Source of the DNA: Escherichia coli
GTDB taxonomy: Bacteria; Pseudomonadota; Gammaproteobacteria; Enterobacterales; Enterobacteriaceae
NCBI RefSeq assembly: GCF_001677475.2
Contig: NZ_CP015229.1
Length of the DNA stretch: 64,000 nucleotides
Reading direction: 5' to 3' (one strand)
The notes under the pieces are model-generated. The model was not told where the DNA came from, did not search any database, and saw only the letters and a program-made list of their open reading frames with translations. Positions within the stretch are counted from its first letter, which is position 1, and the number at the start of each line of letters is the position of its first letter. Of this stretch, positions 7,220-43,170 are shown in pieces. Position numbers and translations under genes: made by a program.

Positions 7220-9652
7220 TTACAGCATATGTTCAGTACGGGCGATGATATCGTCCTGTGCGTCTGGAGAGAGCGCGGTGAAGAAGGCGGAATAGCCCGC
7301 GACACGCACTACCAGATCGCGGTACTGATCCGGATGTTTTTTCGCTTCCAGCAGCGTTTCGCGGGAAACGATGTTGTACTGAATATGCCAGCCTTTATGC
7401 ACCTCGAAGAAGGTGCGCAGCAGGATCATCAGTTTCTGCTTGTCAGATTCGTTCTCCAGTGTTGCTGGATTCAGTTTCTGGTTGAGCAACACGCCGCCGA
7501 GAATCGCTGCCGTAGGCAGTTTACCCACCGAGCCAATGACCGCAGTAGGGCCAAGATGATCAGTACCGGAAGCCGGGCTTGCGCCTTCTGCCAGCGGGGT
7601 GTGGGCTTTACGCCCGTCCGGTGTTGCCATAGTCTGCGCGCCAAACGGTACGTTAGCGGAGATAGACGACGTACCCGCGTAATAGTTGCCGCCAACCGGA
7701 CCACGACCGTAGCGCGGATTATGGTACTGTTTCAGTTCGTCGATATAGGTCTGATAAGCGCGAGCCAGCAGCGTATCGACGGTATCATCGTCGTTGCCGT
7801 ACTTCGGCGCACCGTTAATCAGCCGCTGACGCAGCTGCTCGTGCGTCAGACCATCGAAGTCATCCGCCAGTGCGGCAGCCAGCTGTTGCTGACCAATCGC
7901 GCCCTGTTCAAATACCAGTTTCTTCACTGCCGCCAGGCTGTTGCCGAGGTTGGCAATGCCGACCTGCAGGCCAGAAACCCAGTCATATTTCGCGCCGCCT
8001 TGCTTGATACTTTTCGCTCGCTCAATGCAGTCATCCACCAGCGCCGAGCAGAGAATATCGTGTACGTTCTCTTCCAGCATGGTGTCGACGACATATTCAA
8101 TTTCGATTGATTTGCGGGTGTAGTAACGGATTTGCATATCCCACGCGTCCATTACTTCATCGAAATTGTTAAAGTTACCCGCTGACAACGCTTTTTCTTG
8201 TGGCAGGAACACTTTGCCGCTGGTGGCATCACGACCGCCTTCCAGCGCCGCCAGCATCACGCGGGCGAAGTTGATAAAGCTCATGCCGGTACAGCGATAG
8301 CCCCATTTGCCACCGACGGCGGTTTCGATACAACCAATCGCTGCATAGTCGTAAGCGTCCTGCGGTTCAATACCGAGTTTAATAAATTCCGGGATCACGA
8401 TTTCGTCGTTGTTGAACGCCGGCATCCCGAAGCCGCAACGGATCACCTGTACGCAGGCGTCGAGGAAATCGTTGCTCATTCCCGCGTGGTAACGCACGCT
8501 GAGGTTAGGCTGAGTGGAACGCAGGCGACCGCAGGATTCGAGGATCGCGTAAGAAAGTGGATTCACCGCGTCCATCGGTTGACCATCAACCAGATTTTGC
8601 CCGCCAATGGTGACGTTCTGATACAGCGGACTTCCCGCAGAGGCTTTTGAGTGCGAGCCGGAGCGGATTTTGTTCACTTCCAGCAGTTTCAACCAGCAGC
8701 TATGCAGCATCTCGATGGCGTGTTCACGATCCAGTATCTGGTTCAGTTCAACGTCGCGGCGATAGTACGGGTAGAGATACTGGTCCATACGACCAAACGA
8801 TACTGAGTGACCGTTAGATTCGATCTGCAAAATCAACTGGATGAAGTAGCACAGTTGCAGCGCCTGCCAGAAAGTCTGCGGCGGCTGGTGGGCGATAAGA
8901 TCGCAGTTTTCTGCTATCGCCAGCAGTTCATCGCGACGGCTTTCGCGGGTTTCAGTGGCTGCCATTTCACGCGCCAGGGCAGCGAAACGTTCAATGTGTT
9001 CACTGACTGCCACCAGCACGATATCAATCGCTTTCAGGAACTGCTCGCCGTGCAAATCTTCCAGCACCGTCAGGTTGATGCGCGAGCGACGTTCCGCTAC
9101 TTTCTCGCGCAGACCATCAAGACCTTTTTCCAGCAGCAGCGGGAAATTCACCGCCAGGTGCGCATCGCCGGAGGTCATATTGCCTTCCGCTTTAATGATT
9201 CCGGTCGCCAGCAGACCTTTTTGCTCATCGGTAAACATGCCGTAGCAGCGATCCTGTACCGTCTGACCGCGCCACCACGGGCACACTTCATGCAGAACAC
9301 GTTTGTTCTCTTCGCTCACCGCAAAACCTGCGCCGGGACGATCTGCCAGATCATCAATCTCTTTTTCGATCCAGGAGACGGTATATTCCGGGAAGATTGG
9401 CGCGGCGCGAACTTCGCTTGCCTGGTTGCCAATGATCAACTCATCGTGTTTGATCCAGATGGTGCGATTCGTCAGGTGATGTGCCAGCGCCAGCGCGCGA
9501 CGTACCGGGATCGGCTTATCGAGATGTTGTTGATACATCTCGGTATAGTGCTGCGCGCGCTCGGTACAAACCGGCGGTTTCACAATATGTACCAGCGCAT
9601 TTTTGTGCGCTTTAATGCGGTCGCTGAGCGTGTCCAGTTTCAGTGTGGTCAT
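7220..9652 (-). CDS. ybiW: Glycyl radical enzyme, pyruvate formate-lyase homologue YbiW (PflF)
   Basis: 810-aa ORF with C-terminal glycyl-radical signature RVAGYSAFF; adjacent to its activase. Confidence 0.88.
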   Translation of the reverse strand: MTTLKLDTLSDRIKAHKNALVHIVKPPVCTERAQHYTEMYQQHLDKPIPVRRALALAHHLTNRTIWIKHDELIIGNQASEVRAAPIFPEYTVSWIEKEIDDLADRPGAGFAVSEENKRVLHEVCPWWRGQTVQDRCYGMFTDEQKGLLATGIIKAEGNMTSGDAHLAVNFPLLLEKGLDGLREKVAERRSRINLTVLEDLHGEQFLKAIDIVLVAVSEHIERFAALAREMAATETRESRRDELLAIAENCDLIAHQPPQTFWQALQLCYFIQLILQIESNGHSVSFGRMDQYLYPYYRRDVELNQILDREHAIEMLHSCWLKLLEVNKIRSGSHSKASAGSPLYQNVTIGGQNLVDGQPMDAVNPLSYAILESCGRLRSTQPNLSVRYHAGMSNDFLDACVQVIRCGFGMPAFNNDEIVIPEFIKLGIEPQDAYDYAAIGCIETAVGGKWGYRCTGMSFINFARVMLAALEGGRDATSGKVFLPQEKALSAGNFNNFDEVMDAWDMQIRYYTRKSIEIEYVVDTMLEENVHDILCSALVDDCIERAKSIKQGGAKYDWVSGLQVGIANLGNSLAAVKKLVFEQGAIGQQQLAAALADDFDGLTHEQLRQRLINGAPKYGNDDDTVDTLLARAYQTYIDELKQYHNPRYGRGPVGGNYYAGTSSISANVPFGAQTMATPDGRKAHTPLAEGASPASGTDHLGPTAVIGSVGKLPTAAILGGVLLNQKLNPATLENESDKQKLMILLRTFFEVHKGWHIQYNIVSRETLLEAKKHPDQYRDLVVRVAGYSAFFTALSPDAQDDIIARTEHML

Positions 9653-12175: not shown

Positions 12176-13410
12176 TACCGGCCTCCGAACAACGCGTTAA
12201 ACGGTTCTACTTCCACCCATTCGCCCACTTCCACATTGCCGCGATCGCGTTCCAGCACGATAAAGCAGTTGCCGAGACTAAATGAGCTAAATATATGTGA
12301 ACCCTGATGTCCGGTGGTCGTCACTTCAAGTTCGCCGTCGGCGTTGCGTTGCAGCACGCCGCGCTGGAAATCAAGCCGACCTGGCGTTTTCTTCAGGCGG
12401 GACGCTGTGCGTACGCGCTGGCGCTCGGGCAGGCCGCTGGCGGTGTTGCCGCTTAGTTTTGCCAGCAAAGGCTGTACCAGTTGATAGAAGGTCAACGTCG
12501 CTGAAACCGGGTTGCCCGGCAGGCCGCAGAACCAACTATTAGAAAGTTTTCCGAACGCGAACGGTTTACCCGGTTTAATCGCCAGCTTCCAGAAGGCGAT
12601 CTCCCCCAGCTCTTCAAGAATGGTTTTGGTGTAATCCGCTTCACCCACTGAAACACCGCCGGAACTGATCACCACATCCGCCTGGCTGTCGGCTTCAATA
12701 AATGCGGCGCGCAGGTCATGGGGATCGTCGCGGATAATCCCTAAGTTGATTACCTCGCATCCCAACTGTTCTAACATCAGGTGTACGGCGAGACGGTTGG
12801 TATCGTAGATTTGGCCGTCGCCCAGCGGCTGACCGGGCAACTGGAGTTCATCACCGGTAGAAAAAAGCGCTACACGCACTTTACGAATCACCGGAACTTC
12901 GGCAATCCCCAGTGAAGCAATCACTGGCAGTTCAGCGGTAGTCAGGCGAGTCCCCGCCGGGAAAACAACCGCACCTGCAGAGATATCTTCACCGCGACGG
13001 CGAATATTTTGCCCGCTACGCACTTCAGCAGTAAAACGCACGCCATTGTCAGTTTGTTCAGTCTGCTCCTGCATCACCACCGCTTCGCAGCCTTCCGGCA
13101 CCGGCGCACCGGTCATAATACGAATGCAGGTACCCGCAGGCCATTCACCATGGTACGGCTGACCGGCAAAGGATTTACCGGCAACGGGCAGCGGTTGCCC
13201 GGAGGCAATATCGGCTAAACGCACCGCGTAGCCGTCCATAGCGGAGTTATCAAACCCCGGAACATCAAGCGGCGAAACGACATCGCTCGCCAGAATACGA
13301 CCAAAACACTGAACCAGTGGCAGCGTTTCCTGGGCGGTCAGTGGGGTAACGCGAGAAAGCATCTCATTAAGCGCGGTGTCGAGCGACATCAATCCGGTGG
13401 TAAATTCCAT
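12175..13410 (-). CDS. moeA: Molybdopterin molybdenumtransferase MoeA
   Basis: 411-aa ORF; sequence and moeA-moeB operon arrangement with a 1-nt overlap. Confidence 0.9.
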
Positions 13411-18935: not shown

Positions 18936-19847
18936 ATGCGACTATTTAACTGGCGACGTCAGGCGGTGTTAAACGCCATGCCACTGGTCAAACCTGACCA
19001 GGTACGTACACCGTGGCATGAATTCTGGCGACGATTTCGCCGTCAGCATATGGCGATGACCGCCGCATTATTCGTTATTTTATTGATTGTGGTGGCCATT
19101 TTTGCACGCTGGATCGCTCCCTATAACGCCGAAAATTATTTTGATTATGACAATCTGAATAACGGACCTTCTTTGCAGCACTGGTTTGGCGTCGATTCAC
19201 TGGGGCGCGACATTTTCAGCCGTGTCCTGGTTGGTGCGCAAATCTCGCTGGCGGCGGGCGTGTTTGCCGTGTTTATCGGTGCGGCGATAGGGACGTTGCT
19301 GGGCTTGCTGGCTGGATATTATGAAGGCTGGTGGGATCGGCTGATCATGCGCATTTGTGATGTGCTGTTTGCCTTCCCGGGTATTTTACTGGCGATCGCT
19401 GTTGTTGCGGTGTTGGGAAGCGGCATTGCTAACGTGATTATTGCAGTTGCCATTTTTTCCATCCCCGCGTTTGCCCGCCTGGTGCGCGGCAACACGCTGG
19501 TGTTGAAACAGCAAACCTTTATTGAGTCAGCACGCAGTATTGGTGCCAGCGATATGACCATTTTGTTGCGTCATATCCTGCCTGGGACCGTCTCTTCTAT
19601 CGTGGTGTTTTTCACCATGCGCATCGGTACCTCGATTATCTCTGCCGCCAGCCTGTCATTTCTCGGCCTCGGTGCGCAGCCGCCGACACCAGAGTGGGGA
19701 GCAATGCTCAATGAGGCACGAGCGGATATGGTTATCGCGCCGCATGTCGCTGTTTTTCCGGCCCTGGCTATTTTTCTGACCGTACTGGCGTTCAATTTGT
19801 TGGGCGATGGTTTACGCGATGCGCTGGATCCGAAAATTAAAGGATAG
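18936..19847 (+). CDS. gsiD: Glutathione ABC transporter permease GsiD
   Basis: 303-aa hydrophobic ORF, DppC/OppC-like permease; synteny. Confidence 0.88.
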
Positions 19848-29837: not shown

Positions 29838-30434
29838 TCAGTCACGCACCCAGCCTTTGCGGATCGGTAATGCAAAACAGAAGCGATACCACGATTGCAG
29901 ACGTTGATAGAGTTTATGCCCTATCGCTTGCCAGATAATCTGGGCGCTAAGGCAGCCAATCATACCTGCCAGCAATCCACCGAGCATATCCAGCGGCCAG
30001 TGGACGCCAAGATAAACGCGCGACCAGGCAATGACGACGGCCAGCACCATTAAAAGTGAGCCGGACCACAGGCGATGCCAGCATAAAAATGCCAGTGCAA
30101 AGGTGAAAATCACCGTACCGTGATCGCTCGGGAATGAGTCATCCGCCGCATGATGCAGGAAGTTATAGCCGATATTTTCGACAAAGGGTCGGTCGTGCGG
30201 AAAAAGATGCCCCATCGTCCAGGACACAAACAGGCTGACCGCCAGCGCAATAGCGATTTTTATCACCAGTTGCCGTTGTGCTGTAAGCCCCCACAGCCAA
30301 AGTATCGCGGCCAGCAACGGCACCACGGTAATCAAATCTTTAGCAATAAAAATCGCCAACGAGATCATCCACGGCGCAGAGTCTGGCGTCGCGTTAATAA
30401 GAGAGAATAGAGAGAGATTCAAATTTTCCAGCAT
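29838..30434 (-). CDS. ybjG: Undecaprenyl-pyrophosphate phosphatase YbjG (PAP2 family)
   Basis: 198-aa product from MLENLNLSLF; PAP2 motifs (PSDHG, SRVYLGVHWPLD). Confidence 0.85.
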   Translation of the reverse strand: MLENLNLSLFSLINATPDSAPWMISLAIFIAKDLITVVPLLAAILWLWGLTAQRQLVIKIAIALAVSLFVSWTMGHLFPHDRPFVENIGYNFLHHAADDSFPSDHGTVIFTFALAFLCWHRLWSGSLLMVLAVVIAWSRVYLGVHWPLDMLGGLLAGMIGCLSAQIIWQAIGHKLYQRLQSWYRFCFALPIRKGWVRD

Positions 30435-30718
30435 AACTTCCCGACGCAAAGTGATTAAAAGGGAGCCAATACAGGCAAGTCGTTGAGAATAAAGTGCAGG
30501 TTAAACTGGGTAAAGCGGCATCGTCTTATTTCCCTCAAGCGGCCTGTTTACGGTGGGTGATTGTAACGGGCATAGGTTAAATAAAACTTAAAGAAAGCGT
30601 AGCGATACTCGCGATAATGTAAGAATGTGCTTAACCGTGGTCTCAGCTACAAAATTCGCTTTCTCGTTAGCTGCGCTTTTATTAAACTTTGCGCGATTAT
30701 TATTGGCGAAGAAATTGC

Positions 30719-31951
30719 ATGCAAAATAAATTAGCTTCCGGTGCCAGGCTTGGACGTCAGGCGTTACTTTTCCCTCTCTGTCTGGTGCTTTACGAATTTT
30801 CAACCTATATCGGCAACGATATGATTCAACCCGGTATGTTGGCCGTGGTGGAACAATATCAGGCGGGCATTGATTGGGTTCCTACTTCGATGACCGCGTA
30901 TCTGGCGGGCGGGATGTTTTTACAATGGCTCCTGGGGCCGCTGTCGGATCGTATTGGTCGCCGTCCGGTGATGCTGGCGGGGGTGGTGTGGTTTATCATC
31001 ACCTGTCTGGCAATATTACTGGCGCAAAACATTGAACAATTCACTCTGTTGCGCTTCTTGCAGGGCATAAGCCTCTGTTTCATTGGCGCTGTGGGATACG
31101 CCGCAATTCAGGAATCCTTCGAAGAGGCGGTTTGTATCAAGATCACCGCGCTGATGGCGAACGTGGCGCTGATTGCTCCGCTACTTGGTCCGCTGGTGGG
31201 CGCGGCGTGGATCCATGTGCTGCCCTGGGAGGGGATGTTTGTTTTGTTTGCCGCATTGGCAGCGATCTCCTTTTTCGGTCTGCAACGAGCCATGCCTGAA
31301 ACCGCCACGCGTATAGGCGAGAAACTGTCGCTGAAAGAACTCGGTCGTGACTATAAGCTGGTGCTGAAGAACGGTCGCTTTGTGGCGGGGGCGCTGGCAC
31401 TGGGATTCGTTAGCCTGCCATTGCTGGCGTGGATCGCCCAGTCGCCGATTATCATCATTACCGGCGAGCAGTTGAGCAGCTATGAATATGGTTTGCTGCA
31501 AGTGCCTATTTTCGGGGCGTTAATTGCGGGTAACTTGCTGTTAGCGCGTCTGACCTCGCGCCGCACCGTACGTTCGCTGATTATTATGGGCGGCTGGCCG
31601 ATTATGATTGGTCTGTTGGTCGCTGCTGCGGCAACGGTTATCTCATCGCACGCGTATTTATGGATGACCGCCGGGTTAAGTATTTATGCTTTCGGCATTG
31701 GTCTGGCGAATGCGGGACTGGTGCGATTAACCCTGTTTGCCAGCGATATGAGTAAAGGTACGGTTTCTGCGGCGATGGGAATGCTGCAAATGCTGATCTT
31801 TACCGTCGGTATTGAAATCAGCAAACATGCCTGGCTGAACGGGGGCAACGGACTGTTTAATCTCTTCAACCTTGTCAACGGAATTTTGTGGCTGTCGCTG
31901 ATGGTTATCTTTTTAAAAGATAAACAGATGGGAAATTCTCACGAAGGGTAA
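30719..31951 (+). CDS. mdfA: Multidrug efflux MFS transporter MdfA (Cmr)
   Basis: 410-aa product from [14 protein letters not shown]; 12-TM MFS with MFS motif [11 protein letters not shown]. Confidence 0.9.
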
Positions 31952-40002: not shown

Positions 40003-40479
40003 ATGACATCGCTGGTCGTTCCTGGTCTGGATACGCTGCGTCAATGGCTCGATGACCTGGGGATGAGTTTTTTTGAATGTGATAACTGTCAGGCTCTGCA
40101 TCTGCCCCATATGCAGAATTTCGACGGTGTCTTTGATGCCAAAATCGATCTGATCGATAACACGATCCTGTTTTCTGCCATGGCGGAAGTCCGACCTTCA
40201 GCCGTATTGCCGCTGGCGGCGGATTTATCTGCTATCAATGCCAGTTCGCTGACCGTGAAAGCATTTCTTGATATGCAGGATGATAATCTGCCAAAGCTGG
40301 TGGTTTGCCAGTCTTTATCCGTTATGCAAGGCGTAACCTATGAGCAGTTTGCATGGTTCGTGCGTCAGAGCGAAGAGCAGATTTCGATGGTCATTCTTGA
40401 AGCTAATGCCCATCAACTGCTGTTACCGACTGACGATGAAGGGCAAAACAACGTTACCGAAAACTATTTCCTCCACTGA
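40003..40479 (+). CDS. ybjN: YbjN (putative sensory transduction regulator family)
   Basis: 158-aa product from MTSLVVPGLDTLRQWL; internal ATG chosen over the ORF-track start at 39955. Confidence 0.82.
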   Translation: MTSLVVPGLDTLRQWLDDLGMSFFECDNCQALHLPHMQNFDGVFDAKIDLIDNTILFSAMAEVRPSAVLPLAADLSAINASSLTVKAFLDMQDDNLPKLVVCQSLSVMQGVTYEQFAWFVRQSEEQISMVILEANAHQLLLPTDDEGQNNVTENYFLH

Positions 40480-40754
40480 TAACTCCTTTCGAGTACGCAG
40501 TCGCTGCCGCAGTGACTGCGTGCTGCAAAATTATCTGCTGTTTTTAACCTTTTCTTAAAGATTATTTCACTTCTCTTGTGCCGATTTGGCTTTATCACAT
40601 AGAGCAAATACGCATAAAAATTTGTTAAATACCGTTTTTTAATCCGAGCTATAGTCTCAAACCCTGGCTAAAGTTATTCTTGCGATGCTTTTATATAGCG
40701 AGCAGTGCTGGCCGGGAGAGAGTTCTCTTTTCTTACACCGCGCCGATAAAAAAT

Positions 40755-40771
40755 ATGCACGTTTATTGCAT
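40755..40771 (+). promoter_or_regulatory. Candidate sigma-54 (-24/-12) promoter upstream of potF
   Basis: atgcacgtttattgca compared with consensus TGGCACG-N4-TTGCA: -12 element and spacing perfect, -24 element has T for the first G; 60 bp upstream of potF ATG. Confidence 0.3.
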
Positions 40772-40829
40772 ATCTTTCAGTGTGACAACTTTTGTTCGTT
40801 TGTTAACGAACTTTCAGAAGGAAAGAGAT

Positions 40830-41942
40830 ATGACCGCCTTAAATAAAAAATGGCTATCGGGTCTGGTTGCGGGTGCTCTGATGGCCGTCTCTGTCGGCAC
40901 GCTCGCGGCTGAACAAAAAACACTCCACATTTATAACTGGTCTGATTATATCGCCCCGGACACGGTGGCCAATTTTGAAAAAGAAACCGGTATTAAAGTC
41001 GTCTACGATGTTTTCGACTCTAACGAAGTACTGGAAGGCAAATTAATGGCGGGTAGCACCGGCTTTGACCTGGTGGTGCCGTCAGCAAGCTTTCTTGAAC
41101 GCCAGTTGACTGCGGGAGTTTTCCAGCCGCTGGATAAAAGCAAATTGCCGGAGTGGAAGAATCTCGACCCGGAACTGCTGAAGTTGGTTGCCAAACACGA
41201 CCCGGATAATAAATTTGCTATGCCCTATATGTGGGCGACGACCGGGATTGGCTATAACGTCGATAAAGTTAAAGCGGTGCTGGGCGAAAACGCGCCCGTC
41301 GATAGCTGGGACTTGATCCTCAAGCCTGAAAATCTGGAAAAACTAAAAAGTTGCGGTGTCTCTTTCCTCGATGCGCCAGAAGAAGTTTTTGCTACCGTGC
41401 TGAATTATCTCGGCAAAGATCCCAACAGCACTAAAGCGGATGATTACACCGGACCGGCTACCGATCTGCTGTTAAAGCTGCGCCCGAACATTCGTTATTT
41501 CCATTCATCTCAATACATTAACGACCTGGCAAACGGCGATATCTGCGTCGCTATTGGCTGGGCGGGTGATGTCTGGCAGGCGTCAAACCGCGCGAAGGAA
41601 GCGAAGAATGGCGTTAATGTCTCGTTCTCGATTCCGAAAGAAGGGGCGATGGCGTTCTTTGATGTCTTCGCCATGCCTGCGGATGCCAAAAATAAAGACG
41701 AAGCCTATCAGTTCCTGAATTACCTGCTGCGCCCGGATGTGGTGGCGCATATTTCCGACCATGTGTTCTATGCCAACGCGAACAAAGAAGCTACGCCGCT
41801 GGTAAGCGCGGAAGTGCGTGATAATCCAGGGATTTATCCTCCGGCGGACGTTCGTGCGAAGTTGTTCACTCTGAAAGTGCAGGATCCAAAAATAGACCGT
41901 GTGCGCACCCGCGCGTGGACCAAAGTGAAGAGCGGAAAATAA
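40830..41942 (+). CDS. potF: Putrescine ABC transporter periplasmic binding protein PotF
   Basis: 370-aa product from MTALNKKWLSGLVAGALMAVSVGTLA (signal peptide). Confidence 0.9.
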   Translation: MTALNKKWLSGLVAGALMAVSVGTLAAEQKTLHIYNWSDYIAPDTVANFEKETGIKVVYDVFDSNEVLEGKLMAGSTGFDLVVPSASFLERQLTAGVFQPLDKSKLPEWKNLDPELLKLVAKHDPDNKFAMPYMWATTGIGYNVDKVKAVLGENAPVDSWDLILKPENLEKLKSCGVSFLDAPEEVFATVLNYLGKDPNSTKADDYTGPATDLLLKLRPNIRYFHSSQYINDLANGDICVAIGWAGDVWQASNRAKEAKNGVNVSFSIPKEGAMAFFDVFAMPADAKNKDEAYQFLNYLLRPDVVAHISDHVFYANANKEATPLVSAEVRDNPGIYPPADVRAKLFTLKVQDPKIDRVRTRAWTKVKSGK

Positions 41943-42036
41943 TCCGCAGTCGTAGATGCCGGACGGGCGCACCACACCCGCCGGCAATTCGCACCATTAT
42001 GGTGCGCTTGCACACATTCAATGCCGGAGAGCAGCC

Positions 42037-43170
42037 GTGAATGACGCTATCCCTCGCCCGCAGGCGAAAACCCGTAAGGCGCTGACGCCGCTATTAGAAA
42101 TCCGCAACCTCACCAAATCCTACGATGGTCAACATGCGGTGGATGATGTCAGCCTGACCATCTACAAAGGTGAAATCTTCGCGCTGCTGGGCGCATCCGG
42201 CTGTGGCAAGTCCACGCTGCTGCGTATGCTGGCAGGTTTCGAACAACCTTCTGTCGGGCAGATTATGCTCGATGGCGTCGATTTGTCACAGGTACCGCCT
42301 TACCTGCGCCCCATCAATATGATGTTTCAGTCTTACGCGCTGTTTCCGCATATGACCGTGGAACAGAATATCGCTTTTGGCCTGAAACAGGACAAATTGC
42401 CGAAAGCGGAAATTGCCAGCCGGGTCAATGAGATGCTCGGGCTGGTGCATATGCAGGAGTTCGCCAAACGCAAACCGCATCAGCTTTCCGGCGGTCAGCG
42501 ACAGCGTGTGGCACTGGCCCGAAGCCTTGCCAAGCGCCCGAAACTATTACTGCTCGATGAGCCGATGGGCGCACTGGATAAAAAGCTGCGTGACCGGATG
42601 CAGCTTGAAGTGGTGGATATTCTGGAGCGTGTCGGTGTGACCTGCGTGATGGTCACCCACGATCAGGAAGAGGCGATGACCATGGCGGGGCGCATCGCCA
42701 TTATGAATCGTGGGAAATTTGTCCAGATTGGCGAACCGGAAGAGATCTATGAGCATCCGACCACCCGCTACAGCGCCGAATTTATTGGCTCGGTTAATGT
42801 CTTTGAAGGTGTACTCAAAGAGCGTCAGGAAGATGGTCTGGTGCTTTATTCGCCGGGGCTGGTGCATCCACTGAAAGTCGATGTAGATGCTTCGGTGGTC
42901 GATAACGTGCCGGTGCATGTGGCGCTTCGCCCGGAAAAAATCATGCTTTGCGATCAACCGCCTGCTGACGGCTACAATTTTGCGATGGGGGAGGTGATAC
43001 ACATTGCCTATCTCGGCGATCTTTCGGTGTATCACGTTCGTCTGAAAAGTGGGCAGATGATTAGCGCCCAGCTACAAAACGCCCATCGTCATCGTAAAGG
43101 GTTACCGACCTGGGGCGATGAAGTGCGTTTGTGCTGGGAAGTGGACAGCTGTGTGGTGCTGACGGTTTAA
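42037..43170 (+). CDS. potG: Putrescine ABC transporter ATP-binding protein PotG
   Basis: 377-aa product from GTG 42037 (VNDAIPRPQAKTRK...); Walker A GASGCGKST, signature LSGGQRQR. Confidence 0.88.
   Translation: MNDAIPRPQAKTRKALTPLLEIRNLTKSYDGQHAVDDVSLTIYKGEIFALLGASGCGKSTLLRMLAGFEQPSVGQIMLDGVDLSQVPPYLRPINMMFQSYALFPHMTVEQNIAFGLKQDKLPKAEIASRVNEMLGLVHMQEFAKRKPHQLSGGQRQRVALARSLAKRPKLLLLDEPMGALDKKLRDRMQLEVVDILERVGVTCVMVTHDQEEAMTMAGRIAIMNRGKFVQIGEPEEIYEHPTTRYSAEFIGSVNVFEGVLKERQEDGLVLYSPGLVHPLKVDVDASVVDNVPVHVALRPEKIMLCDQPPADGYNFAMGEVIHIAYLGDLSVYHVRLKSGQMISAQLQNAHRHRKGLPTWGDEVRLCWEVDSCVVLTV

Follow-up and report, generated by a model that had tools for sequence, protein, structure and literature searches.

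The potFGHI locus and its sigma-54 element

The locus belongs to the Escherichia coli chromosome: many complete E. coli genomes match a 501-bp query around the element at 100% identity, between ybjN and potF, and the open reading frames of the window (the whole 64-kb stretch of DNA analysed) follow the K-12 order nfsA, rimK, ybjN, potF, potG, potH, potI, ybjO, rlmC. Coordinates are those of the window; adding 852,177 converts them to the U00096.2 coordinates used in the literature. The ybjN stop codon ends at 40479, and a spacer of 351 bp separates ybjN from potF (40830..41942, + strand; open reading frame list and RefSeq annotation), the first gene of the operon, which encodes a putrescine-binding protein of 370 aa. 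The potF-potG spacer is 94 bp long, and potG starts with GTG at 42037.

The ybjN-potF spacer carries the sigma-54 -24/-12 element of potFGHI, TATGCACGTTTATTGCA (40754..40770, + strand), identified by its sequence, its identity with the published binding site OS08, its position weight matrix (PWM) score and its conservation. The preliminary description had ascribed to atgcacgtttattgcat (40755-40771) a perfect -12 TTGCA, correct spacing and a T for the first G of the conserved GG, about 60 bp upstream of potF; all three features are read in the sequence, and the measured distance is 58 nt between the element and the potF ATG (40830). The -24 block is ATGCAC (40755-40760) and the -12 block is TTGCA (40766-40770). 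Compared with TGGCAC-N5-TTGCA, all specified positions match except A at 40755 (-26) and T at 40756 (-25); when the sequences are aligned on the -12 GC (40768-40769), the position of the consensus GG (40756-40757) reads TG. The spacing is that of a sigma-54 promoter, with G at 40757, GC at 40768-69 and 11 bp between the two Gs. Among 134 other ChIP-bound sigma-54 sites, G is found at -24 in 133, G at -13 in 133 and C at -12 in 124. The GG doublet is lacking from the potF site, as 40756 is T, a position at which the other bound sites have G (130), A (3) or T (1; n = 134). Since bound sites without the first G exist, the missing GG leaves sigma-54 membership possible.

A PWM was built from the 134 other sigma-54 ChIP-seq motifs (Bonocora et al. 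2015, Tables 1 and 2), with the potF site excluded. The potF site scores 8.9 bits, the fourth-lowest value among the 135 bound sites, due to the T that replaces the first consensus G at 40756. It ranks 46th of 127,968 window positions and is the top match within 40200-40830. Under an iid model the probability of such a score is 1.7e-4 per position, which gives an expectation of ~21 hits per window and ~1,500 per genome, and of ~0.06 equal-or-better hits on the + strand of the 351-bp ybjN-potF spacer. By sequence score alone, the potF site is only marginally above chance. The window has 45 positions that outscore it, and only one of these, 30703-30719 (OS07), is in the high-stringency ChIP list of Bonocora et al. 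Four sites absent from that list, 12464-12480 (-), 55561-55577 (-), 9278-9294 (+) and 19533-19549 (-), reach 13.7-15.1 bits, an illustration of how unspecific the matrix is. Outside the window, the OS32 motif TATGCCCGTTTATTGCA, upstream of K-12 ygfT, shares 16 of 17 positions with the potF motif, the variable spacer and the rare T at -25 among them.

Published binding and expression data

Bonocora et al. 2015 mapped sigma-54 by ChIP-seq, and the 17-mer TATGCACGTTTATTGCA is their site OS08 (PMC4591121). As the same sequence has already been published, the present finding is a rediscovery: the potFGHI sigma-54 promoter is already catalogued and is not new. The OS08 peak centre (892944) and the motif centre (892939) are 5 bp apart, occupancy is low and near threshold (fold-above-threshold, FAT, 2), and the site is marked 'P' (predicted, not confirmed) in EcoCyc; the study places its start 19 bp beyond the motif centre, at a distance of 49 bp from potF (PMC4591121). 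The same study found a sigma-54 peak at 15 of 15 earlier-described NtrC operons and, by ChIP-qPCR in S. Typhimurium, robust sigma-54 association at all 14 sites tested, potF included (PMC4591121). A low PWM score had been put forward as grounds for refuting the element; applied here, it would wrongly discard a site that is bound in vivo.

The sigma-54 promoter list of RegulonDB includes potF (PMC3118216), RegulonDB and EcoCyc give the gene as dependent on sigma-54 and NtrC, and potFGH are annotated 'RpoN NtrC' in a 2009 table (PMC2907692). On nitrogen depletion, mRNA of potG rises 6.0-fold and that of potI 3.2-fold, and Shimada et al. 2021 conclude that RpoN and NtrC are both needed for the induction of these two genes (PMC8743547). 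The RT-qPCR targets in that work are potG and potI, not potF, and the effect is ascribed to a 'potG promoter' (PMC8743547). The suggestion that potF has a sigma-54 promoter within the NtrC regulon is supported by the OS08 ChIP-seq peak, RegulonDB, the 'RpoN NtrC' annotation and the induction on nitrogen depletion. The segment 40754-40770 is very probably a genuine sigma-54 promoter of potFGHI (potFp). A catalogued promoter has been re-identified, and putrescine import by PotFGHI is confirmed as part of the NtrC/sigma-54 nitrogen-scavenging response.

The strongest RpoN gSELEX peak, described by Shimada et al. as 'upstream of potF', was considered as direct support and downgraded. Its centre (892632, window 40455) is ~307 bp upstream of the motif, and Table S2 of Shimada et al. 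assigns the peak to a sequence beginning TTTGCATGGTTCGTG, which corresponds to window 40348-40364, inside ybjN. This segment, TTTGCATGGTTCGTGCG, scores 6.3 bits in the PWM and also has T for the first G of GG. Shimada and Bonocora place five further shared sites within 72 bp of each other. With its centre ~307 bp away and its assignment to another sequence, the peak gives no clean support for the potF motif.

Conservation of the element

Conservation was analysed in a sample of 80 PotF loci, each from a different species. An unanchored MAFFT alignment across 25 genera has just two invariant blocks ahead of the Shine-Dalgarno sequence and start codon, ATGCA (40755-59) and GCAT (40768-71), and the bases between them vary freely. 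A pattern search recovers the promoter element at a fixed position in 56 of the 80 species, mostly 58-60 nt before the ATG and up to ~95 nt in Buttiauxella and Cedecea. The -24/-12 spacing is fixed in at least 55 of the 56 species carrying the element. Yokenella has a 2-bp spacer deletion, keeps both arms and fails the search pattern. Canonical GG is absent from every one of the element-bearing species (56 of 80), which have ATGCA and never TGGCA. Outside the palindromic core, conservation extends to Y at -21, G at -20, T at -17/-18 and T at -14/-15, a distribution that fits the sigma-54 matrix better than a simple two-fold symmetry; the table of conserved positions is motif-anchored, with -21, -20, -15 and -14 partly constrained by the pattern and only the flanking columns fully independent.

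Yersinia, Serratia, Pectobacterium, Dickeya, Brenneria, Rahnella and Sodalis lack the element, and in Salmonella arizonae and diarizonae (L012, L010) the -12 TTGCA is degraded to AGGCA. This species pattern agrees with the cross-genus scores of Bonocora et al. (S5, PMC4591121). Among E. coli genomes, 5,404 of 5,426 contain the 66 bp that surround the site; the variants sampled, including the most divergent, show TT to AA in the spacer and a change in the length of the upstream A-tract, and the -24/-12 blocks are never altered. The conservation places the potF element far beyond what chance would give. The matrix alone would drop a genuine conserved site, and 44 better-scoring positions in the same 64 kb lack a high-stringency ChIP listing; conservation is the better filter for sigma-54 sites.

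Extra canonical sigma-54 sites are found in two species: TTGGCGAGATTCTTGCA in a Kluyvera (L019; 15.8 bits, ~265 bp upstream of the potF ATG) and TTGGCGAGGTTTTTGCA in a Pseudocitrobacter (L028; 16.6 bits, ~141 bp upstream). Both species also retain the conserved ATGCA-type element in the same spacer. Two Yersinia loci (L045, L046) have the palindromes GCATCCCACGGATGC and GTACCCGTCAGGTAC ~59 bp upstream of potF, where enterics carry the sigma-54 element, which suggests that potF may have a different regulator in Yersinia.

An NtrC-type palindrome between potF and potG

A search of the interval 40480-40750 for NtrC enhancer sites had been proposed, and none was found there; the entire 40480-40829 region has no match to the 17-bp NtrC consensus within 3 mismatches. 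The best match to the 10-bp core in the upstream spacer has 2 mismatches, sits in the ybjN terminator hairpin and was rejected. Across the species examined, no NtrC core occurs within 400 bp upstream of potF.

An NtrC-type palindrome, CGCACCATTATGGTGCG (41990-42006), is instead found in the potF-potG spacer and is proposed as a downstream enhancer from its consensus match, its conservation and its overlap with a gSELEX peak and a gel-shift probe. It fits GCACCAnnnTGGTGC perfectly, and its 17 bp, cGCACCAttaTGGTGCg, match TGCACCAnnnTGGTGCA in an atypical place, ~1.2 kb downstream with none upstream. In the 64-kb window it is the sole match to TGCACC-N5-GGTGCA with at most two mismatches and the sole match to the core GCACC-N5-GGTGC with at most one. 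It lies 1,217 bp downstream of the predicted transcription start and ends ~31 bp before the potG GTG (42037). The arms are conserved and the central 5 bp are variable in 45 species, a pattern as expected for what would be a protein-binding palindrome.

In vitro binding of NtrC to the potF-potG spacer is documented: an NtrC gSELEX peak of 95% intensity, at 894130 (window 41953), covers the palindrome, and so does the NtrC-shifted 'potG' probe, which maps to 41704-42123 (Shimada et al., PMC8743547). The NtrC ChIP-seq of Brown et al. 2014 has no peak between 847 and 1073 kb, hence none called in vivo at potF/potG. Evidence for NtrC occupancy is therefore mixed, gSELEX and gel shift being positive in vitro and ChIP-seq showing no peak in vivo.

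With the 17-bp consensus, promoter and palindrome occur together in 46 of the 80 species, the promoter alone in 10, neither in 24, and the palindrome alone in none. With the 10-bp core, the palindrome is present in 45 of the 54 species that have an intact promoter element. The conservation of the palindrome and its co-occurrence with the promoter are themselves observed, in the sequences compared. The co-occurrence mostly separates Enterobacteriaceae from other families and its statistic is inflated by shared ancestry, so it is suggestive only. Apparent co-losses are seen in two lineages: in Salmonella arizonae and diarizonae the palindrome is deleted and the promoter also degraded, and in Yokenella the palindrome is absent and the promoter spacing altered. 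In S. Typhimurium, sigma-54 ChIP-qPCR at potF is positive (PMC4591121), despite the degraded elements of arizonae and diarizonae.

Directly after the potF stop codon is a G+C-rich inverted repeat, GCCGGACGGG..CCCGCCGGC (41958-41985), which has no T-run and contains a GCACCA half-site in its loop. Possible roles of this stem are mRNA stabilisation or partial termination.

On the simplest reading for E. coli, 41990-42006 is a downstream NtrC enhancer of potFp, and we give this about an even chance. The palindrome has no obvious local promoter to serve, since no sigma-54-like site within ~900 bp around it exceeds 6.9 bits in E. coli. A separate potG sigma-54 promoter was considered for E. coli and rejected for this reason.

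A rather unlikely alternative is that the promoter is real and the palindrome is not its enhancer. The palindrome would then serve an internal potGHI promoter, as Shimada et al. assume, or act for example as a roadblock, and the activator of potFp would be either NtrC, acting from solution or from sites that are weak or unrecognised, or a different enhancer-binding protein. Shimada et al. regard the potG promoter as a known RpoN/NtrC target, report an RpoN+NtrC gSELEX peak of 45% at potG, and find that NtrC and RpoN holoenzyme both shift the 41704-42123 probe (PMC8743547). However, all seven additional gel-shift probes also bound RpoN holoenzyme (PMC8743547), so the assay discriminates poorly, and the ChIP-seq of Bonocora et al. 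has no high-stringency sigma-54 peak at potG (PMC4591121). Several Citrobacter species do have a correctly spaced sigma-54 match of 15-16 bits, CTGGTGCGTTATTTGCA, that overlaps the right half of the palindrome (2700-2716 of locus L003, and the same relative position in L005, L006 and L008), and may possess a genus-specific internal potG promoter. In the E. coli counterpart, however, the sequence after the palindrome, TGGTGCGCTTGCA, is 3 bp too short in spacing for a -24/-12 pair, and nothing nearby scores above 6.9 bits. In addition, the 31 bp from the end of the palindrome to the start codon of potG are too few for the usual enhancer-to-promoter distance of 100-150 bp. The nine species with an intact promoter element and without a good palindrome fit a promoter that is independent of it.

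Conserved non-consensus bases and an inverted repeat

The sigma-54 matrix disfavours or ignores three bases of the potF element that are nevertheless invariant: A at -26, T at -25 and T at -10. They complete a 7-bp inverted repeat, ATATGCA-N7-TGCATAT (40753-40773). Two readings are considered. In one, selection keeps the closed complex weak, as the low (FAT 2) occupancy would lead one to expect; in the other, they belong to an overlapping operator, Lrp, ArgR and ArcA having been reported at the promoter.

As a rival to the sigma-54 explanation, the main or an additional function of ATATGCA-N7-TGCATAT would be that of an operator for a dimeric transcription factor, with sigma-54 binding secondary; we regard this as unlikely. 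The matrix-unfavoured invariant bases are exactly those that make the arms symmetric, no orthologue has reverted to GG, Yokenella keeps both arms despite its changed spacing, and there are reports of Lrp, ArgR and ArcA binding in the region of the potF promoter. As TGCA is self-complementary, however, part of the symmetry is automatic in any TGCA..TGCA promoter. The conservation has the asymmetry expected of a sigma-54 site, with Y at -21 and G at -20 to the left and T at -15/-14 to the right, the spacing is fixed in 55 of 56 species, and the sigma-54 ChIP peak is centred on the motif (PMC4591121). By eye, the inverted repeat does not match the consensus of ArgR, ArcA, Nac or AtoC, and it was matched to none of the consensus sequences of Lrp, ArgR and ArcA. 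AtoC was rejected as the regulator in question, the motif given for it in PMC3118216 differing in spacing.

Flanking structures and transcription from potFp

The transcription start of potFp is predicted at 40781 (+ strand), 12 nt after the C of the -12 GC, from sigma-54 geometry, which would give a 5' UTR of 49 nt. No mapped start for the potF sigma-54 promoter was found in the literature consulted. In the predicted 5' UTR is a hairpin, GTTCG..CGAAC with a conserved GTTAAC loop (40794..40811, + strand; RNAalifold). Across 26 species, RNAalifold gives it four pairs, three of them with compensatory changes (one pair is UA in 11, CG in 9, UG in 4 and GC in 1), and a weak consensus energy of -2.5 kcal/mol. 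The hairpin fits a transcript that would start upstream of 40794; its possible roles are in stability, in translation or as a DNA site.

Directly upstream of the promoter is a second hairpin-forming stretch (40703..40746, + strand), whose membership of the promoter is uncertain. It stands after a conserved AGCGAGC and is followed by an A-tract (40746-40753). It forms a two-tier hairpin, for example CTGCC..GGCAG around GGAGAG..CTCTCC, found in most species with differing sequences. Its mean folding z is -1.4, compared with -0.95 for a control segment, which weakly supports a structure, and RNAalifold returned no consensus structure for it from a poor alignment. The stretch could be a terminator, an insulator or part of a longer leader. 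An Rfam search of 40300-42200 gave only a meaningless sub-threshold match, with no known leader RNA family and neither hairpin matched. The IHF consensus WATCAANNNNTTR has four exact matches in the window, none near the locus, the nearest being at 30330.

Regulators other than NtrC are on record: potFGH is strongly RpoS-dependent in O157:H7 (PMC2907692), and Lrp, ArgR and ArcA sites are annotated at the potF promoter, so other promoters or regulators contribute to potFGHI. A sigma-70 promoter scan of 40400-42150 gave no + strand candidate in the ybjN-potF spacer at the thresholds of the tool.

Sigma-54 holoenzyme might bind potFp and never fire, the site being poised or repressive and nitrogen control coming from a sigma-70 or sigma-S promoter with Lrp, ArgR or Nac. 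We judge this very unlikely. It would agree with the low occupancy, the merely 'predicted' status in EcoCyc and the caution, stressed by Bonocora et al., that sigma-54 binding alone does not prove promoter function (PMC4591121), as well as with the repressive RpoN sites described by Shimada et al. (PMC8743547) and with the RpoS dependence. However, RpoN and NtrC are reported as necessary for the induction of potG and potI under nitrogen limitation (PMC8743547), the element has the classical distance and orientation relative to potF, it co-evolves with the NtrC site, and a conserved hairpin is found within the predicted 5' UTR. A functionless chance resemblance to sigma-54 sites is extremely improbable: the genome-wide expectation and the 45 better-scoring window positions, among which only OS07 is ChIP-listed, would allow it, but the invariance of both blocks in 25 genera around a variable spacer and the ChIP-seq peak centred on the site (PMC4591121) already contradict it, and the expectation in the spacer is only ~0.06 on the + strand.

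Proposed mechanism

In the preferred reading, in which potFp is a sigma-54 promoter activated by NtrC, RNA polymerase-sigma-54 binds ATGCAC (-24) and TTGCA (-12) as a closed complex and would start near 40781. To open, the complex requires an ATP-dependent enhancer-binding protein, under nitrogen limitation phosphorylated NtrC; putrescine uptake would thereby be turned on as part of nitrogen scavenging. The weak, conserved variant of the -24 element, with A and T for T and G at -26 and -25, would keep occupancy low, and might make the promoter strongly dependent on activators and architectural proteins. From 41990-42006, past the end of potF, NtrC would contact the promoter through a DNA loop of ~1.2 kb. 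Precedents for action at such distances are summarised in PMC4941409: NtrC sites remain active when more than 1 kb away from glnAp2, and RocR acts on the B. subtilis rocG promoter from a site 1.5 kb downstream of it.

The full proposal, that potFp is an enterobacterial sigma-54 promoter with an enhancer ~1.2 kb downstream and a selected non-consensus -24 element, is made tentatively, and we think it somewhat improbable as a whole. The reason for the selection could be a weak closed complex that is fired only through looping from the distant enhancer, or the operator of a second regulator. Neither the downstream enhancer nor the selected -24 element was found stated in the literature consulted; Zimmer 2000, Reitzer and Schneider 2001 and EcoCyc may cover them. 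If the palindrome is the enhancer, potF would be a chromosomal case of long-range downstream enhancer action in E. coli, and would lend itself to studying why so weak a -24 element has persisted for so long.

Comparison with known systems

Like glnAp2, glnHp2, nac, astC, argT and glnK, potFp has the -24/-12 architecture, the spacing and a sigma-54 ChIP-seq signal. It also shares with the E. coli NtrC promoters the logic of nitrogen scavenging and, putatively, an associated NtrC palindrome fitting TGCACCAnnnTGGTGCA. Unlike them, it has T for the first G, where only 4 of 134 other bound sites lack G, and it has no upstream NtrC site, the only one being ~1.2 kb downstream, past the first gene. 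Occupancy is FAT 2 for potFp, compared with 6-24 for glnH, nac and glnA (PMC4591121).

The arrangement resembles that of the sigma-L (sigma-54) promoter of B. subtilis rocG: in both systems the site for the enhancer-binding protein is found past the first gene, in the spacer that separates it from the next gene of the pathway, at 1.2-1.5 kb downstream from the -24/-12 promoter. The downstream activating sequence of rocG was shown by deletion and relocation (Belitsky and Sonenshein 1999), whereas at potF the link between enhancer and promoter is suggested by sequence, in vitro binding and co-conservation only. The rocG site doubles as the UAS of the rocABC promoter, whereas E. coli shows no second promoter after the palindrome.

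Weak sigma-54 promoters of the glnHp2 type are dependent on an architectural protein, which is IHF at glnHp2, whereas the one reported at the potF region is Lrp; a role for Lrp in potF looping is speculation. Both glnHp2-type promoters and potFp have a conserved departure from the consensus in one element, the -12 element in the former and the -24 element in potFp, and a weak closed complex is implied in each case.
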